Below are positions 19,556 through 29,726 of a stretch of 32,000 bases of DNA, in pieces (position 1 is the first letter of the stretch; every line of letters starts with the position of its first letter). The position numbers and the translations under genes were made by a program. Origin of the DNA: Candidatus Poseidoniaceae archaeon (GTDB lineage: Archaea > Thermoplasmatota > Poseidoniia > Poseidoniales > Poseidoniaceae); the NCBI GenBank assembly GCA_943789275.1, contig CALSTM010000001.1, forward strand, positions 210,001-242,000, read 5' to 3'. The notes under the pieces are model-generated. The model did not search any database. It saw only the letters and a list, made by a program, of their open reading frames with translations, and was not told the origin of the DNA.

Positions 19556-20455
19556 ATGTGGACCGAAGCGTTTGATCTTCACAGTCATTCCACCAACAGC
19601 GATGGTGAACATCCAGTCGCGGACGTGGCGAAGATGATGGCTGAGTCCAAGGTCCAATTTTGGTCATTAACCGACCACGATACCATTTCGGGGTGGAGTT
19701 CAGGAAAGCAGGCTGCAGAATCTGAAGGGATGAAGTTCATTCCTGGCGTTGAGATTACCTGTATGCCCGGTCTTGAAGCAAATGCTGCAGTCATGGAAAC
19801 AAGACAACGAGACCGTGCTTCCGATTCGTGGCATCTCTTGGCGTATTTCCCGCACATTGAATTTTCCAGTAAGGGTCACATGGATTTCGAAGCATGGTTA
19901 GCACCGTTGGGTCAAGGTCGAATTCCACGTATGAAGACGATGGTACAACGGCTCGAAGAACTTGGAATGCCCATTGATTTTGACGCCGTTGTAGCGCGTG
20001 CAGGGGATTCAGTCGGCCGACCGCACTTGGCAGATGAAATGATCGCAGCCGGTTATGTTGAGACAAGACAACAGGCGTTTGACGAATGGATTGGAGACGG
20101 TAAGCCCGTTCACATCACTCGGCCTAAACCGAGCATTGCTGAGGCCTGCAAGGCCGTGCATGAGGCAGGAGGTTTCACATCCCTGGCTCATCCACTTTAC
20201 TATTGCATTGACACTGCAGACCTTGTCCAATTCTGCCTTGATGCGGGTGTTGATGCCATCGAATGTTTCCACCGGAGTCATTCCGATGCTTATCGACATG
20301 AACTTTGGTCAGCCGCCAAGAAGGCCGAACTTGGGGTGACATGTGGCTCAGATTTCCACGGACGTATGTACAATCAATCCCCTGGACGTATGGCAGTGCC
20401 GTTATCGACACTCCCTCCTTCCCTCAATCGGATGGCAAAACTTCTTTTCGAGTGA
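19556..20455 (+). CDS. PHP-domain metal-dependent phosphoesterase (TrpH/YciV-like)
   Basis: FDLHSHSTNSDGEH, SLTDHDT, GVEITC, SLAHP and CGSDFHG motifs. ATG 19556 (MWTEAFDLHSHS) was chosen because the longer track ORF overlaps the upstream gene. Confidence 0.85.
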   Translation: MWTEAFDLHSHSTNSDGEHPVADVAKMMAESKVQFWSLTDHDTISGWSSGKQAAESEGMKFIPGVEITCMPGLEANAAVMETRQRDRASDSWHLLAYFPHIEFSSKGHMDFEAWLAPLGQGRIPRMKTMVQRLEELGMPIDFDAVVARAGDSVGRPHLADEMIAAGYVETRQQAFDEWIGDGKPVHITRPKPSIAEACKAVHEAGGFTSLAHPLYYCIDTADLVQFCLDAGVDAIECFHRSHSDAYRHELWSAAKKAELGVTCGSDFHGRMYNQSPGRMAVPLSTLPPSLNRMAKLLFE

Positions 20456-21269
20456 TTGCATCAATCACTATGGCGATTTCGAAAAGAATGACCACAGGCA
20501 TGGCTACGAGGAACAGCGAAAGCGGGTCTGGTGGAGACAAAAAAGCTCCGAGAATAAACGCACTAAACCAAATGTGGCGCCGATAGGAGCGAACGGTTGC
20601 TCGACGAACCAATCCGAGTCGCAATACAGCGAGTGTGACGAGGGGGGCTTGAAATCCGACTGCAGAAGCGAGTGCCAAATTCGCAATGAATCCAATGTAA
20701 CTGGTGAGTCTCCACTCAGTTGAAAGGCCCGCACTTTGCGCATCGGTCGTGAGGTATTCAAGCAACATCGGTGTAAGCCAATTCCACGAATAGTAGATTC
20801 CGGCAACCATCAAAGTGAGGGCCGATACAAACGTCATGAGCATCGTCATGTTCGGACGAGGTGTTTTGAAATCAAGTTCTGCAAGGCGTTGACGAACGGC
20901 AAAATGTTTGCTTGCTTTCCAACTTCCCTCTGAAAGGAACACGACAACCATGCACATGAGTCCCACATGGGCAGCCAATCTTACTTGAAGCAAAATGAAC
21001 TCGACCGGTGTGATCACAATAATCTCGACGTCGCTTGGAAGCCGCTGTGGCTCAATCAGCCATGCGATAAAAGTTCGAGTGAGTGGAAACGTTGCGACAA
21101 AGCCAATTGCGAACACGAGGGCGAGCATTTTCACTCTTGAGCGAAGATGGGTGCGGAATTGTGAGAGCATTTCGCCGCCGGGTGAATCAAGCAGTTCATC
21201 CACTGCACTGACCAATCGTTCGGCTCCTGCCATTGTTGTGAGGACGAGGCAGACCCTCATAACACACAC
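20424..21269 (-). CDS. tatC: Sec-independent (Tat) protein translocase subunit TatC
   Basis: THLRSRVKMLALVF (HL.ELR.R-like N-terminus), six TM segments, and FLSPPDPLSLFLVAMPVVILFE, the signature TatC C-terminal motif. Confidence 0.85.
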   Translation of the reverse strand: MCVMRVCLVLTTMAGAERLVSAVDELLDSPGGEMLSQFRTHLRSRVKMLALVFAIGFVATFPLTRTFIAWLIEPQRLPSDVEIIVITPVEFILLQVRLAAHVGLMCMVVVFLSEGSWKASKHFAVRQRLAELDFKTPRPNMTMLMTFVSALTLMVAGIYYSWNWLTPMLLEYLTTDAQSAGLSTEWRLTSYIGFIANLALASAVGFQAPLVTLAVLRLGLVRRATVRSYRRHIWFSAFILGAFLSPPDPLSLFLVAMPVVILFEIAIVIDAITRKEVLPSD

Positions 21270-21281
21270 TCATCGTGAATG

Positions 21282-22715
21282 TCATTCTTGTTCCCAGAGA
21301 TGAGACGGTGTTGAGTCGTAGAACTTCCTGTTGTATTTCTTGAGCCGACGGATGCGATTGATGACAAAGCCAGTCATCCACAGGGATGCAAGTGAAAGAG
21401 CGATGGCTTGACCCATCAAGTCCTGATGATAATCGTTTAACACGCGAACTTGAATGACATCACCCGTTGAGTTCTGACTCGGGTTATGCATCATGATGTA
21501 ATGGAAGACCATTGGGGAATCGATGACCACTCCAAGTGTCGACTGTGGAGGTACATACTGAACCTCTCCAATACTCTTCACGATGCTCCAATCAATCGAG
21601 CCGTTTTCCATCGCAGGAGGTGCGATGTCGACCATGAGAACAACCACCTCCATGGTGATGGAATCATCGAGATTCGTTATGTTGGAATGAACATTCATCC
21701 CAGGTTCGAACTTCTGTATAATCTCAAACCGTGAGTCATCAGGTCCAAGTTGGTAGGATATGCGTTCATCGACGTGCGTTTCTTGGTACTGAACGGCCAT
21801 GAGAATCGTGGTGAGTAACAGCAATGCGACGATTCCCTCTACCAGCAAATGCTGACGAATCTTTTTGCTCGTGAATCCTTTGAAGAAACTACCGTAATCA
21901 TTTCGCAACCTCGGTTGGAGGTGGTGGATGAACAATGCTCCAACACCGCCAATTAACATTCCAAGTGGTATGTCGATGAACCAATGGATGCCAAGATAAA
22001 GAATGGTGAATATGAACAACACTGTATTCAGCAATACGAACATGTGGTATCGGAAATGCCGCCACTCCCGAAGTGTTCCTCCGTTTTCTCGCACATGCAG
22101 ATAATTAAGCAGCAGAATACCGAACGGTATGGCGACATGCAGAGATGGAACAGCATTGTCGAGTGGGTCATGCGTTGCATAGAATACGCTGTACCATCCC
22201 TCGTGATACAGCAGCGATTCCATTCCTGGTATCCAGGAGGATGTGACTTCCACATTAAAAAACAGGTAATAAGGAACGGCCAGAGCGTAAATCAGCAGAT
22301 AATTCAGGGCCACTTTGTCCGTCATGTCTCGGTCGCCAGTGTAGGCGAAGTACACGGTTGTGACGTAAATCAAGAACAGGTAAATGAACAGGTAATGGAA
22401 ATTAAGGAATGAAGTGAGCGTGTCGTTGAGGAAGAACTCTTGAACATGCTGTGTAAAGTCCCCTTCGAGCGAATAGACGGCTTGTGTCCAATGTCCAGTT
22501 CGCAATTTAATCGGTTCGTTGAGCGCATCGGTAATCGACTTCCACTTGATGATGACAATGTAACCCATTGCGTGAAGGTAGTACCGTTGGTCGTGAAAAA
22601 CCTGCAACCAACGCTTCATTGGGACACGCATTGCAGGCTTGTGGGCAGTGAATGCCCAACAAATAATTGGCGTCAACACCAAGATGAGCCCCATCATGAT
22701 GCCATAGGGGTCCAT
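21282..22715 (-). CDS. PAP2-superfamily (PAP2_3/IPC-synthase-like) integral membrane protein with a C-terminal extracytoplasmic domain of about 190 aa
   Basis: Multi-TM N-terminal half carrying the PAP2 C2 motif VPSLHVA and the C3 motif HWFID (HxxxD). No C1 KxxxxxxRP was seen, as in head-group transferase-type PAP2 proteins. Confidence 0.55.
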   Translation of the reverse strand: MDPYGIMMGLILVLTPIICWAFTAHKPAMRVPMKRWLQVFHDQRYYLHAMGYIVIIKWKSITDALNEPIKLRTGHWTQAVYSLEGDFTQHVQEFFLNDTLTSFLNFHYLFIYLFLIYVTTVYFAYTGDRDMTDKVALNYLLIYALAVPYYLFFNVEVTSSWIPGMESLLYHEGWYSVFYATHDPLDNAVPSLHVAIPFGILLLNYLHVRENGGTLREWRHFRYHMFVLLNTVLFIFTILYLGIHWFIDIPLGMLIGGVGALFIHHLQPRLRNDYGSFFKGFTSKKIRQHLLVEGIVALLLLTTILMAVQYQETHVDERISYQLGPDDSRFEIIQKFEPGMNVHSNITNLDDSITMEVVVLMVDIAPPAMENGSIDWSIVKSIGEVQYVPPQSTLGVVIDSPMVFHYIMMHNPSQNSTGDVIQVRVLNDYHQDLMGQAIALSLASLWMTGFVINRIRRLKKYNRKFYDSTPSHLWEQE

Positions 22716-22843
22716 GTTTTGACGGGCGTAGGGATTTCATATAGGTATTATGACGAACATGACCGGTAAAGCGGCTTCCGTTTACTCACGAAGATGGGGC
22801 ACAGCATCATTACGCTTAGAAAGGAGTTCTCATTGGATGTAAC

Positions 22844-24001
22844 ATGGTGCAAAAATGGAACCAAGCACCTGAGAACACTTTGGAGAGTCTTCGGCACGCC
22901 ATTCAATTCAACGACGGCATCGAATTTGACTTACGATTGACCAGTGATCAAGAACTGATTTTGCATCATGACGCACACCTTTCAGTACCGGAGTCCAAAT
23001 ACCCGCATTCGGTGAAGTGGACTGAAAACCACACGCTTGAAGAGTTAACATCGTTGGGCTTTCTCTCGTTCAAAGCTATGCTTGAAGACCCCGTGATACA
23101 CTCAGAGTGGCGCGACAAGGGTAAAATGGGTTGTGTGGAATTCAAACGTCCACACCCTCGTGCTCTCTACGGCGGTGGATTTTTTGGGAAAAAGCAACAT
23201 ATCTCTCATATGAGTCATATGATCTCGAAAGCCGAAGTCTTGCTCGATGAATACGAGATTCCCCATGAAAACGCCGTCTACTATGCATTCCATACTGGAA
23301 TGGAATCTTCAGCCAAGATGGCTCAAACAAAACGTCCTTGGGCGAATTTAACTCCATACATCCCCCCATTCGGAACCTATTACACCAAAAGAATGCGTGG
23401 TACTTTACAGTTCTTGGGCACTCCATTGGCTCGATTGATTCACGCCAATAAAGACGCAGGCGCTGCAATGGCTCCCTGTGCTGTCGAGTATTTCTTACCT
23501 CCACAGAATTGGCTCACGTTCGGTCGGACAGGCGGCTTAAAAGGCGACCGAATACGGCGTGTGAATGCACATCAGGGTGGATATCCGATTTACGTCTGGC
23601 CTGCAAACCTCGACACTGAATACGATATTCTCAATGCCGGTTTGACGGGGCTTACAGATTGTTCAGACCCTGATGTTACTTGGTTGCCTTCGGGGCACTT
23701 GAGATGGACTCAACCGGCGACCAAACCTCTTGATGCTCAGCAAACTGAACTCCTCCATTCTGCAACTGCTTCAAATCATCTTGACATTTTGAAAGAACTT
23801 CAAACCCATGTACTCCCATGGTCTGATTGCGATGCTCAGCGTAAAACCGAGCTCATCGATATGTGGAAAGAAAAATGGCAGTGGAGCGATTCAACCGCAG
23901 CCATCCTCGAGCGTTCAAGTGATGCATCGCCCCCATGGGAAGCGATACGGCTGCTCGGCCATCGAGGCTCAGGGAAGACTTCACGCCCAGTTTTGAAGTG
24001 A
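22844..24001 (+). CDS. Glycerophosphodiester phosphodiesterase (GDPD) family protein, apparently circularly permuted
   Basis: PENTLESLRHAIQFNDGIEFDLRLTSDQELILHHD (ENT, E-x-D, HD motifs), CVEFK, and YVWPANLDTEYDILNAGLTGLTDCSDPD (the WTVN...GVDGIITD-like end of the barrel). The N-terminal HRG strand is missing, and LLGHRGSG appears at the extreme C-terminus. Confidence 0.8.
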   Translation: MVQKWNQAPENTLESLRHAIQFNDGIEFDLRLTSDQELILHHDAHLSVPESKYPHSVKWTENHTLEELTSLGFLSFKAMLEDPVIHSEWRDKGKMGCVEFKRPHPRALYGGGFFGKKQHISHMSHMISKAEVLLDEYEIPHENAVYYAFHTGMESSAKMAQTKRPWANLTPYIPPFGTYYTKRMRGTLQFLGTPLARLIHANKDAGAAMAPCAVEYFLPPQNWLTFGRTGGLKGDRIRRVNAHQGGYPIYVWPANLDTEYDILNAGLTGLTDCSDPDVTWLPSGHLRWTQPATKPLDAQQTELLHSATASNHLDILKELQTHVLPWSDCDAQRKTELIDMWKEKWQWSDSTAAILERSSDASPPWEAIRLLGHRGSGKTSRPVLK

Positions 24002-24004
24002 GTC

Positions 24005-25189
24005 TCACTCGATATGTCGAAGCGTTTGTGCTTCAGCGATGTACTTGGGTCGATAAATTGGCGTACCCTTTCCGTTCCGCAAAACAGCACGCTCATCGAC
24101 GATTTGTGCACCAATTCCTGCTACACGAGCCCATCCAAAGAAGGTGGTGTAATAGGTTGGGTCGGTGAATCCAATGTGGTGCAATAAAGCGCCACTTGCG
24201 ATGTCGACGTTGGCGTTTGGGTTGCTGATCTTTGGATTCTCAGCAAGGACACGAGGAGCAACTTCTCGCAGCGTTGTAACAATTTTGAAGTTTTCATCGT
24301 CAGGGCAAATTTCAGAGCCAAGTTCGAATTGAGCAGTAGCGCGAGGGTCCTCAGCCCGAAGGACTGCGTGGCCAAAGCCAAAGATTGGTCGCTTTGCTTC
24401 GAGTTCAGCTCTCACGAATGCTTCAACCTCAGTCGGGTCGCTGGTTCCTACCTTCAGCACAAATTCAAGGCAGGATTGATTTGCTCGTCCGTGAAGAGGC
24501 CCTGAAAGTGCATTCATTGCACCGGCCATCGAAGAGTAAACGGTTGCCTTGCCTGATGCGATTGCCTTACCTGAAAAGGTCGAGAGGTTGCCGCCACCAT
24601 GGTCCATATGAAGAACGAGATAGGTAGAAATTACACGCTTCATTTTCGCTTTGTCGACCCCTTCAAAATCGAGCGCATGAACAAATCGGTCAACGAGGTT
24701 CATCGATGTGTCATCAGCGGGAATATCGTTTTCTCGACCTTCACGGATTCTGAAAATGAGTCCCATCAAACGAGGCATCCGTGCAACGAGATTCAGTGCA
24801 TCTTCCTTCCAATCCTCGGTAGTTTCCAACATGCCCAAGGTGTGTATGCCAATGCTGAGCCAGTCCATTGGATGGCCGAATTTTGGTAAAGTTTTGAGTA
24901 CAGATTCCAAATCTCCAGGGATCGCAGCACGGTTCGCAAGGTCTTGACGGAAAGCAGAGGACTGTTCATCGGTCGGAAGTTCCTTGTGGAACAAGAGGTA
25001 AACGATATCCTCAGGGTCAAATTGGGCCAATTCGGAAATCGGATAGCCGCAGTAATGAACGCCTTCAGTTGGCGTGACATATGAGGTGCGGCAAGTGCCA
25101 ACTGGAACGCCTCTTAGGCCAGTGTTGAGGTGGTTCTCAGTCACTTCCAAGAGTACCTTCTTGTCTGCCAAATGCTCCCCTCGGAACAT
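24005..25189 (-). CDS. gltA: Citrate synthase (or 2-methylcitrate synthase) family
   Basis: LSGPLHGRANQ, GFGHAVLRAEDPRA and DIASGALLHHIGF are conserved catalytic His/Asp regions of the citrate synthase family. Confidence 0.93.
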   Translation of the reverse strand: MFRGEHLADKKVLLEVTENHLNTGLRGVPVGTCRTSYVTPTEGVHYCGYPISELAQFDPEDIVYLLFHKELPTDEQSSAFRQDLANRAAIPGDLESVLKTLPKFGHPMDWLSIGIHTLGMLETTEDWKEDALNLVARMPRLMGLIFRIREGRENDIPADDTSMNLVDRFVHALDFEGVDKAKMKRVISTYLVLHMDHGGGNLSTFSGKAIASGKATVYSSMAGAMNALSGPLHGRANQSCLEFVLKVGTSDPTEVEAFVRAELEAKRPIFGFGHAVLRAEDPRATAQFELGSEICPDDENFKIVTTLREVAPRVLAENPKISNPNANVDIASGALLHHIGFTDPTYYTTFFGWARVAGIGAQIVDERAVLRNGKGTPIYRPKYIAEAQTLRHIE

Positions 25190-25264: not shown

Positions 25265-25732
25265 CTATTTTCTGTTCCAAGGTGGCCAAGAACGGAAACC
25301 CTTTGTCGATTCTCTGTCGGCAAAGACGTGGATGCGGATTGACTCTCCATCAATCACAAGCGCATCATCAGCAGTAAGCCCGGGGCATGTTTCTTTGACT
25401 TCTTTCCAAGCTCGGTCTGTAGCGAGATTTTCGCCCCACCATGGGAACGCTGCACATTGTTGCGGGCGAACGGTATAGATGGTGCATTGCTTGTTGCCAT
25501 CCAAATAGATGCATACATCATCCACCGGGCGACTTTTGAGCACATATCGGCCGTCTAAGGTTTGCCGACAGTCTCTTTCCAACCAATCCTCCACTTCCAT
25601 TTTGTGATGCTTAGAAATTCGTTCAGCATCTGTTATGGACAGGTAAACAATTCCACCTGGCTCATCACAGCATTTGCCACAATTCGCTTGACATGAGAAG
25701 GCTACGCCTTCCATCCACCATGGAGGTCTCAT
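25265..25732 (-). CDS. YkgJ-family zinc/iron-chelating CxxCxxCC-domain protein
   Basis: CQANCGKCCDEPGG, then CIYLDGNKQCTIYTVRPQQCAAFPWW, matching the UPF0153/YkgJ pattern. Its ATG overlaps the upstream stop (ATGA). Confidence 0.7.
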   Translation of the reverse strand: MRPPWWMEGVAFSCQANCGKCCDEPGGIVYLSITDAERISKHHKMEVEDWLERDCRQTLDGRYVLKSRPVDDVCIYLDGNKQCTIYTVRPQQCAAFPWWGENLATDRAWKEVKETCPGLTADDALVIDGESIRIHVFADRESTKGFRSWPPWNRK

Positions 25733-27762
25733 TCTTCTTCACCCATCAGCATGTTTTGAACGGGGTGTAATCGGCCAAGACGAATTTTACGTGGCTCAGC
25801 GGTATGGTCAAGTAAATCCATCATGTCAACGCTGCCGGAGTCTACGTTCCATTCTCCAGCAGGCTCATGGCTGTCGAGAGGATCTACGGTTTTCTTTGAT
25901 GAGCGTCGACCGACTTTTCGCCTTTCTTTTTCAACAGTATCTTCTTCCATTTCTGGCCAAGGCTCGCGGTCGGGATCAAATTCAGTAAGATTACTTTCCA
26001 TTCTCCGTAATTCATCTGCGATGGATATCAATTCCTCGATGGTTGCTTCGGAAGTACGCTCGGAGAGGTCGTGAAGTTTTGATTCAAGATGACCAAGTTG
26101 TTTTGAACTCTCAATTAAATCCCTTTCAAAGGAATTGATTTTGCTATCGAATGCCTCATCCAAATCGGTCAACACATCAGCCGCCAGTCCGATATCACGG
26201 TCTTCAATTCGACCTTTGCGAGCAACAAGATGTTGCTCTCTCTCATGCATATTCAATACCGATGGTGCAGCAGGCGCTGTATCCTCCAATGCAATTTTGA
26301 GATATTCAGCGTGGCGTCTGTCACCTGATGCGGCGAGATCACGGGCGTCAAGTTCTGGTGGGATGTACTCGTCGACTCCGATTTCAGGTAACTCAGAATA
26401 GAGGTCTATACCTCCATGAACTTCGTCACTGTATACTGTGTCAACAGCAGAATTGATGAGTCGCATAGCGATGTCCTCTACTTTTTCTCGCTCCGCTAGA
26501 GGTTGCACCGATTGAAGGTCAAGTTGATTTGAAAGCAGGGCAGTGACGTCTTCTCCATCCAGTACCTCCTCACCGGATTGAAGAGCGAGAGCGACCAAGT
26601 CGAAATTGGCTTTTGTCGATTGCCATCCAATGGTATCTTTCAAGACCAGGCTTGCCAATTGACTGTCGTTCATCATGAGGCCTTTCTTGTGCGAAAGATG
26701 TCGTGCATAGAGAACCATGCTTGTCGATTGTGGAGGCTCAAGTTGCACCGAGGCTGCATGACGGGTGAGTTCCCACAGACGCGAGGTAGGCCAATCATCG
26801 GGAGTGCTCTTCGAAGTGAGCAGTACGTGAACGCCAAGATTGAGTGCATAGTCAACCATCATGCCAAGTTCGTGGGCGAGTTCGGGATGGTTCACGTGTG
26901 CGTCAATATCGTCAATTGCAAGCAATCTTGCGTTCACCAACGTATCTTGCCAGCCTTCTGGCAAGCGTTCCAATCCTGCGAACTCCGCACCTGTAAGCAG
27001 GTAGACATTCCCTTCTTGACGGCGCAGTACTGCTTGAGCAGTCGCATGAAGCAGGTGCGTTCTTCCTGTTTGTGATGCGCCGATGAAGAGGAGTGGGTTG
27101 AGTTGACCTCCAGGTGAATCAACCACCGCCTCAGCAGCCTGAGTTGCGCGTGTATTTTCTGGAATGCTAAACCACTGTTTGAAACTCTTCCGAACCTCGG
27201 GACGTAAACGTGATGGCCATACACCTTCAGTTGGGAGTATGACGCTGTGGTGGAACGGTGAAGTTTCATCGTCAGGTGCCAAATCGTTTGCAAGAATTTG
27301 GGTCGTAAGGCCACGATGGCCATCAAGAACCGACTTCCATACCGGGCTGCCATCGTGTTCCATCCCCAAGTAACCGTCTTCGACAGGCCCTTCCTGCTGT
27401 TCGATGGAATCGAATGTTCGTTGGCGTAACGACCGAATGCGACGTGCCGCTATGTCCGAGAGTGAATCTCCGTTGGATTGAAATTCGATGGCAGGCTTTC
27501 TTCGTTCAGTTTGCTTGCCCAAAACGCCGTTAGCTACCAATTGAAACGTCGGTCGCTCAACACTTTCAGTTCGTTGCAGCAGTGTGCCTTTACGTCGGTC
27601 CACGACATCATTCTTGCCGAGCAATCGATTCAGTTTCGAGTTCGAGGGTTCAGAACGCTGTCGATTCTGAGGTGCGATTCGTTCGATTCCTGAGCCAGTT
27701 TGGTCCAGTTTTTGTCGAGCAAGCTCAAGGGCAAGAGCGAGTTTCTCACGCCGTGGATTCAT
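25729..27762 (-). CDS. DnaA/Hda-family AAA+ ATPase-like protein with long disordered and coiled-coil flanks; no DnaA DNA-binding domain
   Basis: Residues about 195-400 (AVVDSPGGQLNPLLFIGASQTGRTHLLHA ... ARLLAIDDID ... VHVLLTSKSTPDDW ... SRLWELTRHAASVQLEPP) align motif by motif with bacterial DnaA domain III (NPLFiYGgvGlGKTHLLHA, LLlIDDIQ, iiLTSDrpP, SRf.wGl.v.iepP). The N-terminus is basic and disordered; the C-terminus is an acidic coiled coil. Confidence 0.7.
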   Translation of the reverse strand: MNPRREKLALALELARQKLDQTGSGIERIAPQNRQRSEPSNSKLNRLLGKNDVVDRRKGTLLQRTESVERPTFQLVANGVLGKQTERRKPAIEFQSNGDSLSDIAARRIRSLRQRTFDSIEQQEGPVEDGYLGMEHDGSPVWKSVLDGHRGLTTQILANDLAPDDETSPFHHSVILPTEGVWPSRLRPEVRKSFKQWFSIPENTRATQAAEAVVDSPGGQLNPLLFIGASQTGRTHLLHATAQAVLRRQEGNVYLLTGAEFAGLERLPEGWQDTLVNARLLAIDDIDAHVNHPELAHELGMMVDYALNLGVHVLLTSKSTPDDWPTSRLWELTRHAASVQLEPPQSTSMVLYARHLSHKKGLMMNDSQLASLVLKDTIGWQSTKANFDLVALALQSGEEVLDGEDVTALLSNQLDLQSVQPLAEREKVEDIAMRLINSAVDTVYSDEVHGGIDLYSELPEIGVDEYIPPELDARDLAASGDRRHAEYLKIALEDTAPAAPSVLNMHEREQHLVARKGRIEDRDIGLAADVLTDLDEAFDSKINSFERDLIESSKQLGHLESKLHDLSERTSEATIEELISIADELRRMESNLTEFDPDREPWPEMEEDTVEKERRKVGRRSSKKTVDPLDSHEPAGEWNVDSGSVDMMDLLDHTAEPRKIRLGRLHPVQNMLMGEEE

Positions 27763-29726
27763 TCGCCTTTCGCCTCCATTTCCTTGCGAAGCCGTTCCCT
27801 GTCTTCAAGTTCCCACACGCTGAGTTTATCTTCCAGTGAAGGTTTCGACTGCTGGCGAAAGGCACCTTCGCGACTTGGTTTTTCGTGTTGGTTTTGCTCT
27901 CTTGCACCGGGTCGGGCCATATGCGGGGTGAGTGATGTTTCGGTGTTGACCGGCTTCCTACTTTTCACCGCATCAAGTGGTCGATTCGGCAGGGGTGTCT
28001 TTGGAAGCCTATGTTCGCGGGTGTTGACATGTTGGCGAGTGGCATCCAGTACTGATGAATGTAATTTTGGAACAGCAGCCATTTTTTCAACCGCTCTCTC
28101 TTGTCGCTGCGTGTAGTTCTCAAGAGTCGAAGAGAACGCTTGCGGTGGTTGAATACTGCCTGCGTCCACTTCACTGAGTTCTTTTGCTTCAGGCGCATTT
28201 CTTACTGCTGCAAACAAAGCGCGCTGCTTTTTTTGGTTTGGTCGTGGCAAAGCCCTCTTTTTCTTCCTTCGAATCTTTTGCGCCTTTCGAGGGCCAGTTG
28301 ACTGCACGCCAGGCATGCGCTCTGCATGCGCACTCGCTGTATGTGAATGCTCAAATTGAGCGCTCGGAACAACTGGTTTAGCAACCTCTGGAAGGGTTCT
28401 TGGAATTGGAGCGTCAGTGGGCTGAGGTCTCTGTTCGATGGCCACCGGTTGTTGGTGGTTTGCAACTGGCTCAGCATTCTTGTTCGTCGGTTCCGGTTCT
28501 TCTTCATTGCTCCATTCTTGAACAACGGAATGCAGTGATTCTGTGGCGGCTTGAACTTCTTCTGACTCGGGAGCGTCGAATCCACCTTCCATCGTCCCAA
28601 AAACACTGGATTGCGGTGCGATAGGGCCGCCGTTCGATGACCAAATCGCTTGTTGCAGTTGTTGTTCAATCCATTCCCGTTCTTCTTCACTGGCTGGGGC
28701 GCATAATGGATGGTCAAGAAGAAGGTCGGGTTCAAGGTTCCAGTGCTCCAATACCGATGCCTCAAGGTCGGTCATGTAGCGTGAGAGGTGCTGGCGTGTG
28801 GTCATTGAAAAGGCGTTGAAGTCAGCTGTCGTCAAGAACAGATGGTCTTCCAAGCGAACTCCATCAACGATGTCTCGCAGGAAATTTACAATCCTGTCAT
28901 CACCGTGTATACTTGAGAGGTACTCGATTCCTTCAAGGACAACCACTGCGCGAAGGTTCTCCCACAGGAACGAGTCGATTTTACGTCGGATGTTTTCGAG
29001 GCTCGGTTCCGTAGATTTGGTGCTGCTGTTCTGCGAGAGCCAACTGCTTGACGCAATTGGAATGTTGTGTTCGACATTGAGTGATTCTATGTCGTGTCGG
29101 GCTAGAACCAGCAACGGGCGCCCGTGAACTGCCAATTGTCCCGCCAGGTCGAACAATGGTGATGGGTCTGGTGAGTCAAACAAGTACGCATCACCCGGCC
29201 GAAGCATTTTTTCCAATCCATCGAAACGCTGCATCATTGCACGGCTTCGTTGACGCAAAGCCTCGGGTGCTTCAACAACCGTTTCCATTTCCGGGAGGCG
29301 TTCTTCACGGCGCCAACTGCTTGTTCGATACCTTGCTTTTGACCACCACGGGTGCTCGTTATTTTCTGAACTCTGCTTTTGCTCGGTTTGCAACTGCGCT
29401 TCAGGGTACAGATCGAGAATCCGGTCCACATCAGACAGCGGCAACTCATGGACGGCAAGAAGTGAATCGAGGAGTGCACAATCGCTTTCGATGTCGAGTA
29501 AGGCTTCGAGAGCCATACTGATCGAGGTGGCTTCATGCACCGCCATCATGGGGATTCCCTCTTTGAAAGCAATGTGGCCTATGCGAGGCATTTGTTCCTT
29601 TGGCCGACGTTCAATACGCAGGTATCCCGTCGTCGATAATCTGGCGATGTCGGAGGAAAGAAGTTGCAATGAATCCGGTCCCCCTCGGCGGACTTCCGTA
29701 ACATCTCCTTGCGGCAATTCCACCAT
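27759..29726 (-). CDS. DUF835-like domain protein with an N-terminal GYLRIE...GxIxFxxG module and a basic, P/Q-rich disordered tail of about 300 aa
   Basis: Residues about 175-330 (GDAYLFDS...GRPLLVLARHDIESL...SWLSQ...ENLRAVVVLEGIEYLSSIHGDDRIVNFLRDIVD...HLFLTTADFNAFS) match the archaeal DUF835 pattern as I remember it (G..gLcitR, WLt, vvlLDglEYLi..ngf..vl.Fl..l.D). No Walker A motif is present. Confidence 0.6.
   Translation of the reverse strand: MVELPQGDVTEVRRGGPDSLQLLSSDIARLSTTGYLRIERRPKEQMPRIGHIAFKEGIPMMAVHEATSISMALEALLDIESDCALLDSLLAVHELPLSDVDRILDLYPEAQLQTEQKQSSENNEHPWWSKARYRTSSWRREERLPEMETVVEAPEALRQRSRAMMQRFDGLEKMLRPGDAYLFDSPDPSPLFDLAGQLAVHGRPLLVLARHDIESLNVEHNIPIASSSWLSQNSSTKSTEPSLENIRRKIDSFLWENLRAVVVLEGIEYLSSIHGDDRIVNFLRDIVDGVRLEDHLFLTTADFNAFSMTTRQHLSRYMTDLEASVLEHWNLEPDLLLDHPLCAPASEEEREWIEQQLQQAIWSSNGGPIAPQSSVFGTMEGGFDAPESEEVQAATESLHSVVQEWSNEEEPEPTNKNAEPVANHQQPVAIEQRPQPTDAPIPRTLPEVAKPVVPSAQFEHSHTASAHAERMPGVQSTGPRKAQKIRRKKKRALPRPNQKKQRALFAAVRNAPEAKELSEVDAGSIQPPQAFSSTLENYTQRQERAVEKMAAVPKLHSSVLDATRQHVNTREHRLPKTPLPNRPLDAVKSRKPVNTETSLTPHMARPGAREQNQHEKPSREGAFRQQSKPSLEDKLSVWELEDRERLRKEMEAKGE

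Follow-up and report, generated by a model that had tools for sequence, protein, structure and literature searches.

The window analysed here, a 32,000-nucleotide stretch from a Candidatus Poseidoniaceae archaeon, carries on its forward strand an open reading frame (ORF, 22844-24001) for a protein of the glycerophosphodiester phosphodiesterase (GDPD) family. The original prediction, made from the DNA letters and a list of their reading frames, was that this protein is a circularly permuted triosephosphate isomerase (TIM) barrel, in which the strand bearing the catalytic His-Arg-Gly (HRG) motif has moved from the N-terminus to the C-terminus. The protein starts with MVQKWNQAPENTL, eight residues ahead of the GDPD PENT motif, and ends with ...RLLGHRGSGKTSRPVLK at the stop codon (over a longer stretch, ...PPWEAIRLLGHRGSGKTSRPVLK), the final residues being GKTSRPVLK and the HRG lying 12 residues from the C-terminus. 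The His373 codon is CAT and is followed by CGA GGC. Upstream, an in-frame TAG is separated from the ATG by eight codons (K G V L I G C N), none of which is ATG, GTG or TTG. The divergent gene of a PAP2-superfamily membrane protein (21282-22715, - strand) ends 128 bp upstream of the ORF, and the convergent citrate synthase gene (24005-25189, - strand) begins 3 bp past its stop, leaving no space for lost GDPD sequence at either end.

22817-22819, + strand: in-frame stop codon TAG, nine codons ahead of the start codon, closing the frame upstream (sequence)
22844-24001, + strand: putatively permuted GDPD-family ORF, complete, 385 amino acids and stop (gene call, Pfam, homologues, AlphaFold, Foldseek)
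22844-22879, + strand: new N-terminus, amino acids 1-12, MVQKWNQAPENT, probably the former beta-1/alpha-1 loop, with a conserved W5; P-E-N-T opens alpha-1 (Pfam match from position 7; conservation)
22916-22972, + strand: canonical beta-2 with the predicted metal ligands E27 and D29, then H41-H42-D43, in which H42 is the predicted general acid/base His of the GDPD insert (alignment to 2pz0; invariance; strands 25-32 and 38-40)
23126-23158, + strand: canonical beta-3, amino acids 95-105, GCVEFKRPHPR, with E99 (predicted third metal ligand) and K101 (alignment to 7e0v IEIK and 4oec VELK; strand 95-100)
23588-23659, + strand: canonical beta-7 (IYVWP, amino acids 249-253) to beta-8 (GLTGLTD, amino acids 266-272) (alignment to VYVWTVN...GVAAIITD; strands 249-252 and 268-271)
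23672-23929, + strand: Trp-rich helical linker, amino acids 277-362, from beta-8 back to the start of the putative relocated beta-1 (four helices at a predicted local distance difference test score, pLDDT, above 90)
23930-23974, + strand: putative relocated beta-1 and catalytic motif, amino acids 363-377, PPWEAIRLLGHRGSG, with H373 at 23960-23962 and R374 at 23963-23965
23975-24001, + strand: conserved C-terminal tail K-T-S-R-P-V-L-K and stop codon (conservation; pLDDT 91)

Rechecking the sequence upheld what the original prediction had read directly from the letters: the closed upstream frame with its eight start-free codons, the position of the His codon, and the hydrophobic strand (370-372 in the AlphaFold2 model) followed by HRGSG at the C-terminus. 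Its linker of about 95 residues was counted here as about 86-100, depending on where the ends are placed, with 101 residues from D272 to H373. By alignment, the beta-7/beta-8 stretch is the usual C-terminal end of a GDPD barrel. The tail, in which K378, T379, R381, P382 and V383 are conserved in the family alignments, makes up together with amino acids 1-8 the approximately 13 residues that, by the same kind of comparison, are extra at the former beta-1/alpha-1 junction. Several motifs are specific to the family, including an invariant K-R-P-H-P-x4-G-G-G just past the beta-3 E-x-K (amino acids 102-112, 23147-23179) and a PPW ahead of the last strand, and the linker region (amino acids 280-365) contains a conserved series of tryptophans, W280, W288, W326, W341, W345, W347 and W365.

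Homology to canonical GDPDs and the effect of rotation

The protein belongs to the GDPD family by its hidden Markov model match, its fold and every catalytic residue, and fails to conform only in the order of its elements. The Pfam GDPD profile (PF03009) aligned residues 7-86 with profile positions 7-70 of 244; the match scored 48.6 bits, the gathering threshold being 23.6. The match begins right after the HRG positions of the profile, in agreement with the original claim that the ORF begins just past the expected HRG. Sequence matches in the PDB were all GDPDs and covered the same region, and the family profile matched 21 solved GDPD-family sequences, with 2pz0 as the best (E 3.8e-14). In these alignments, E27, D29 and H42-D43 correspond to E44, D46 and H59-D60 of 2pz0. 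E99-x-K101 was aligned by HMMER, using the family profile against archaeal GDPDs, with IEIK of 7e0v and VELK of 4oec; this equivalence was taken from HMMER because the beta-3 region was not aligned by MAFFT. The GDPD metal triad (Glu and Asp on beta-2, Glu on beta-3), the lysine of E-x-K and the second catalytic histidine are thus all present, and all are invariant. The HRG motif is present and invariant as well, but at 373-375, past beta-8, and rotation is needed to align it with the canonical HRG. The canonical order (HRG, 5-8 residues, PENT and so on to beta-8) was found neither in the window protein nor in its family.

We compared the family with a canonical GDPD alignment by profile-profile alignment (hhalign), in the native order and after rotation, in which the last 24 residues were moved to the front. 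The native profile aligned residues 1-283 with canonical positions 11-233 of 236 (score 130.5, E 4e-18), which bears out the earlier statement that the rest of the barrel is intact to its normal end. The rotated profile covered canonical positions 2-233 with all eight strands in order (score 145.5, E 2.5e-20), placing R-l-I-G-H-R-G on V-i-a-H-R-G and leaving 13 residues in excess at the junction. Rotation of the window protein itself extended the Pfam match to profile position 1, with a gain of 2.7 to 5.6 bits. A MAFFT alignment of the rotated family with canonical GDPDs likewise placed R-L-L-G-H-R-G on the canonical V-I-A-H-R-G, and 'GYPIYVWP...LNAGLTGLTD' on 'GYPVYVWTVN...IKAGVAAIITD'. Taken together, the alignments and the structural model support a circular permutation of the GDPD barrel, with the beta-1/HRG strand moved to the C-terminus.

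Conservation of the order across the Poseidoniales

A search of 5.8 billion proteins returned 168 homologue clusters at E <= 0.001, and the matches listed had full-length coverage, were mostly 382-392 amino acids long and came from assemblies of Poseidoniales (Marine Group II). Conservation was evaluated in alignments of 24 and 77 sequences and in a divergent set added from a profile search of 1.84 billion cluster representatives, which contributed members at 24-38% identity with the same two ends. In the 24- and 77-sequence alignments these ends read 'W-x-Q-A-P-E-N-T-L' at the N-terminus and 'R-[LMI]-I-G-H-R-G-S-G-K-T-x-R-P-V' at the C-terminus. H373, R374 and G375 are invariant in both alignments and down to 24% identity. 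The residues invariant in the divergent set (N11, D24, G25, E27, D29, R31, D35, H42, E99, K101, F149, P171, G266, H373, R374, G375 and G377) are by sequence comparison, in essence, the catalytic residues of GDPDs together with the C-terminal HRG.

The orthologues share the topology, as the original prediction would have it. HRG occurs within the last 30 residues of 139 of the 140 long family members and ahead of PENT in none of them (0/140). Among the best 150 of 1396 profile hits there was no family-like sequence with HRG ahead of PENT; in the inspected hits this arrangement was confined to canonical GDPDs with E values of about 1e-10 or weaker, so that homologues with a normal N-terminal HRG were not encountered within the family. 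We also surveyed the best 80 species-representative loci, all from Poseidoniales and including both families and the original Marine Group II genome CM001443.1. The C-terminal HRG is encoded in 79 of these genomes, and the remaining locus runs off its contig. At the G-H-R-G codons of the 80 loci, His is written CAC in 38 and CAT in 41, Arg by all six of its codons and Gly by all four. This synonymous saturation at invariant positions indicates that the residues are held by purifying selection, and the conservation of the C-terminal HRG is far beyond chance. In public annotation, members of the family are called 'hypothetical' or 'GDPD family protein'; NCBIfam gave sub-threshold partial matches only, with no model dedicated to the family.

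Most members have 101 residues from the beta-8 Asp to the catalytic His, within a family range of 54 to 104. The short linkers comprise one of 61 residues in the P0127 cluster (132 member sequences) and one of 54 in P0137. Since such natural variants have a much shorter beta-8-to-His distance, the helical arm would be dispensable in part, which fits closure of the barrel in cis. A 275-residue singleton, P0253 (locus L083, 8001-8828, on a Logan contig), has no N-terminal HRG and ends ...IRFTDHAADYPRHGDDEDNQIIMHRGCGMGPFTP (IIMHRGCG); from its sequence, it may be a minimal permuted form with a linker of about 15 residues. The search of 5.8 billion proteins found no relative of it, its gene neighbourhood is unrelated, and its AlphaFold model was poor (pLDDT 61, with the C-terminal half below 50). 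As a singleton with another gene context and a poor model, it was set aside as evidence for a near-linkerless permuted form.

Artefacts at the N-terminus were examined from both the protein and the nucleotide side. Four public gene calls (P0028, P0029, P0032 and P0096) carry N-terminal extensions of 40-155 amino acids. We rejected these as real sequence, because they are antisense translations of the divergent upstream gene and hence start-site mis-annotations; the extension of P0029, '...DWRQYQDEPHHDSIGVHIW', parallels '...NNWRQHQDEPHHDAIGVHVL' of a spurious antisense ORF in the window (22440-22769, + strand). A scan for a hidden HRG in the 300 nt upstream, in three frames at the 80 loci, found 'HRG' in 12, more than the chance expectation. 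Most of these occurrences are one conserved 'S*[FSC]HRGP' string about 50 codons upstream (L013, L015, L029, L036, L039, L042 and L046), which is separated from the GDPD start by stop codons, reads in another frame in several loci and shares sequence with the start region of the divergent gene. This nucleotide motif is probably part of the start or leader region of the divergent gene, and the stop codons and frames rule out the upstream HRG strings as a hidden N-terminal beta-1. The sole locus with an in-frame HRG near PENT is L040 (NZMN01000023.1), where GGSHRGXFMKQGLNWKPAPENT places the HRG 16 codons ahead of E-N-T; it directly follows a stop codon and contains one ambiguous base, and we judged it to be a chance occurrence.

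Predicted structure, mechanism and competing explanations

An AlphaFold2 monomer model built with 77 sequences had a mean pLDDT of 91.6 and a predicted template modelling score (pTM) of 0.90. Its barrel strands are 25-32 (beta-2), 95-100 (beta-3), 144-148, 166-168, 209-213, 249-252 (beta-7) and 268-271 (beta-8), and strand 38-40 forms a hairpin of the GDPD insert. Four helices (298-305, 312-322, 331-345 and 351-357) follow at pLDDT above 90, and the last strand, 370-372, lies directly ahead of the HRG at a pLDDT of about 94, within a final stretch of 25 residues at 91-94. The N-terminal 272 residues contain only seven barrel strands, which makes the C-terminal strand the obvious eighth. From this strand count, the confidence values and the rotated alignments, we infer that strand 370-372 fills the beta-1 slot. 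The best 50 Foldseek matches of the model in the PDB were GDPD-family folds, nearly all annotated as GDPDs, with a probability of 1.00, E values down to 4.7e-8 and target-normalised TM-scores of 0.5-0.69. The GDPD fold expected from the original prediction was thus recovered for the modelled monomer, and its central claim, the permutation itself, is now backed by the family topology, the invariance of the motif, the gains on rotation and a confident model.

With a rough probability of 0.8, we consider the protein to be a circularly permuted (beta/alpha)8 barrel of the GDPD family, completed in cis, and a metal-dependent, probably active phosphodiesterase. The chain would start in the loop past beta-1, at PENT, and run through the canonical beta-2 to beta-8 (amino acids 1-272), then cross the helical linker of about 90 residues to the hydrophobic strand and His373-Arg374-Gly375. 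This C-terminal strand would insert between beta-8 and beta-2 of its own chain as the eighth strand, which would bring His373 and Arg374 next to K101, the second catalytic histidine His42 and the metal ligands E27, D29 and E99. Because all of the catalytic residues are conserved, enzymatic activity on a glycerophosphodiester substrate is predicted. By analogy with studied GDPDs such as LpgD, the 2-OH of glycerol would be activated by His373 and the metal (bound by E27, D29 and E99) to give a cyclic phosphate intermediate, with His42 serving first as the general acid and afterwards as the general base; the roles of the two histidines and the metal are taken from the study of S. aureus LpgD (PMC10404611).

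Several points weigh against this interpretation. The relocated homologous segment is only about 10 residues long, a short motif with a modest gain in score, and the barrel past residue 86 is too diverged for a Pfam match. The placement of strand 370-372 and the His/Arg geometry are inferred, and the Foldseek alignments are sequential. Among the best 150 of 1396 profile hits, there was neither a tandem intermediate with the family motifs nor a close non-permuted sister. In addition, LpgD with its HRG histidine replaced (H51A) retains part of its activity, and this residue is therefore rate-enhancing rather than strictly essential (PMC10404611).

The original prediction had also described the gene as the footprint of a tandem duplication followed by truncation at both ends, and this part is plausible. 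Fusions of two GDPD domains, of 468-902 amino acids, do exist in several unrelated proteins (P0233, P0248, P0251, P0256, P0262, P0266 and P0267), so that a precursor architecture for permutation by duplication is available; the family-specific intermediate is what the profile hits lacked. The match of the fusions to the family profile was confined to its generic N-terminal part (E 1e-12 to 1e-8), and they illustrate the precursor architecture without being demonstrated ancestors. On this classical route, a GDPD gene would have been duplicated in tandem, after which the first beta-1 and all that lay past the second beta-1 were lost. The shortness of the shared segment, the modest gains on rotation and the missing intermediate would also fit a convergent course, in which a C-terminal extension gained an HRG-like strand that displaced the N-terminal beta-1, later lost, with no duplication involved; hhalign found no GDPD-like sequence in the linker, as this course would have it. 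However, the C-terminus reproduces the full signature of a hydrophobic strand, a small residue, H-R-G and another small residue (R-L-I-G-H-R-G-S versus V-I-A-H-R-G-A), and the de novo origin of this signature is less parsimonious than duplication, tandem GDPD fusions being common. We therefore regard convergence as unlikely.

The way in which the barrel is closed, and the activity itself, allow further readings. The strand could enter the barrel of a neighbouring subunit to give an obligate strand-swapped oligomer: the linker of about 90 residues is far longer than a beta-8-to-beta-1 connection needs, a monomer-only prediction cannot tell insertion in cis from insertion in trans, and complementation in trans is known for permutation intermediates and for fragments of TIM barrels. 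On the other hand, the monomer model is one compact unit at its pTM of 0.90, with the C-terminal strand at a pLDDT of about 94, and the well-supported shorter linkers of P0127 and P0137 fit closure in cis, which makes an obligate swap rather improbable. More speculative is a role of the beta-1/HRG strand as a switch, suggested by its tether on a long Trp-rich helical arm and by the presumed position of both termini at the mouth of the active site. Reversible docking of the strand, or its docking into a partner subunit, would turn the phosphodiesterase on, with membrane or lipid binding of the arm as a possible trigger, possibly together with PAP2 in the Poseidoniaceae; if so, the protein would be a regulated 'split-barrel' enzyme with membrane-lipid head groups, of archaea or of prey, as its targets. 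We also gave very little weight to the idea of a catalytically dead, GDPD-like binding protein whose conserved C-terminus has another role, for example as an interaction motif. Activity is indeed a prediction from sequence, Pfam recognises only the first third of the domain, and there are many lineage-specific conserved motifs; however, E27, D29, H42, E99, K101 and H373/R374 are all invariant, which is not expected of a pseudoenzyme, and the motif at the C-terminus is precisely the catalytic motif that the N-terminus lacks. A mis-called start, a frameshift or assembly error, or a C-terminal HRG left as the decaying remnant of a downstream tandem GDPD gene might seem to be suggested by the database entries with longer N-termini (P0028, P0029 and P0032) and by the occasional upstream 'HRG', but the chance that any of these applies is negligible. 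The identical topology recurs in hundreds of independent assemblies and not in this ORF alone, which together with the closed upstream frame excludes a start-site or assembly artefact. Moreover, purifying selection on the C-terminal residues is strong, the long N-termini are antisense, the upstream HRG strings are about 50 codons away, behind stops or out of frame, and the downstream gene is the convergent citrate synthase in 76 of the 80 loci, 3 bp away in the window.

The permuted GDPD family can be set beside several known systems. It shares with canonical GDPDs of the GlpQ/UgpQ type (PF03009; 2PZ0 of T. tengcongensis, 5T91/5T9B for B. subtilis GlpQ, 4OEC of T. kodakarensis and 7E0V of P. 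furiosus) the TIM-barrel fold, the invariant HRG, PENT, E-x-D, HD and E-x-K, and the beta-7/beta-8 signature 'VWx...G..x..TD'. Unlike them, it has beta-1/HRG after beta-8 at the C-terminus, past a helical linker of 54-104 residues, and about 13 extra residues at the former beta-1/alpha-1 junction, as well as the motifs KRPHP-x4-GGG and PPW. With LpgD (8GHH) it would have in common a site of two histidines and a divalent metal, H373 corresponding by alignment to His51, H42 to His93 and E27 to Glu78, whereas LpgD has the canonical strand order, an N-terminal membrane helix and a known substrate. Tandem GDPD-GDPD proteins (for example P0233, P0251, P0256 and P0267) present the same succession of beta-8 of the first copy, a linker and beta-1/HRG of the second, but both of their domains are complete and canonical and lack the family-specific motifs.

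TIM barrels are rarely permuted in nature, and the known cases are textbook-level illustrations of how protein topology evolves; they include the GH70 glucansucrases relative to the GH13 alpha-amylases and transaldolase relative to the class I aldolases. As in those cases, the chain of the GDPD family described here would begin at a strand different from that of its relatives while preserving the catalytic residues. In contrast to them, the present case concerns the PLC-like phosphodiesterase superfamily, a single strand has moved, a long helical connector has been added, and the cut falls within the active-site loop between two catalytic motifs, an unusual site that separates the catalytic His-Arg from PENT by the whole length of the chain. 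A full-text literature search returned no report of circular permutation in GDPDs or PLC-like phosphodiesterases, and none on the GDPDs of Marine Group II/Poseidoniales. Within the literature searched, this would be the first circular permutation in the GDPD/PLC-like phosphodiesterase superfamily. Both the permutation-by-duplication model and the folding order of the barrel could be tested on this natural example. It is also a warning that a domain match truncated at profile position 7 can hide a complete enzyme. The Poseidoniales (Marine Group II) belong to the most abundant archaea in surface ocean waters, and the protein is a candidate enzyme for the use of glycerophosphodiesters (phospholipid head groups) by these uncultured heterotrophs.

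Gene neighbourhood and minor observations

The PAP2-superfamily (lipid phosphatase-like) protein encoded upstream has 477 amino acids, and its gene is followed by that of TatC (20424-21269, - strand). PAP2 adjacency was found in 59 of the 80 Poseidoniales loci, all of the Poseidoniaceae type; in Thalassarchaeaceae-type loci the PAP2 neighbour is absent and TatC is on the other strand. The convergent citrate synthase is kept order-wide. In the window, 3 bp separate the ends of the GDPD and citrate synthase genes; in L001 (7179-7191) the two genes overlap by 13 bp. Separate terminators cannot fit into such an arrangement. The PAP2 adjacency is weak evidence for a link to lipids and the citrate synthase carries no information on function, and the gene context as a whole reveals little of what the protein does. 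Inspection of the GDPD sequence by eye revealed no N-terminal hydrophobic, signal-like segment, and the protein is therefore probably cytoplasmic.

A Shine-Dalgarno-like AAAGGAG (22820-22826) is located 17 nt ahead of the GDPD ATG, and a one-codon ORF, ATG-TAA (22837-22842), lies between the two. This may be an oddity of spacing, or a mini-ORF or re-initiation arrangement. Further along the window, a large overlapping gene pair is encoded on the - strand (25729-27762 and 27759-29726). One of its products, of 677 amino acids, weakly matches PF00308 (E 5e-10), an ATPase domain of the bacterial DnaA type and as such unusual in an archaeon, and the other is a 655-amino-acid DUF835 protein. The pair is kept in the locus of a relative at 49% identity (L001/L002).

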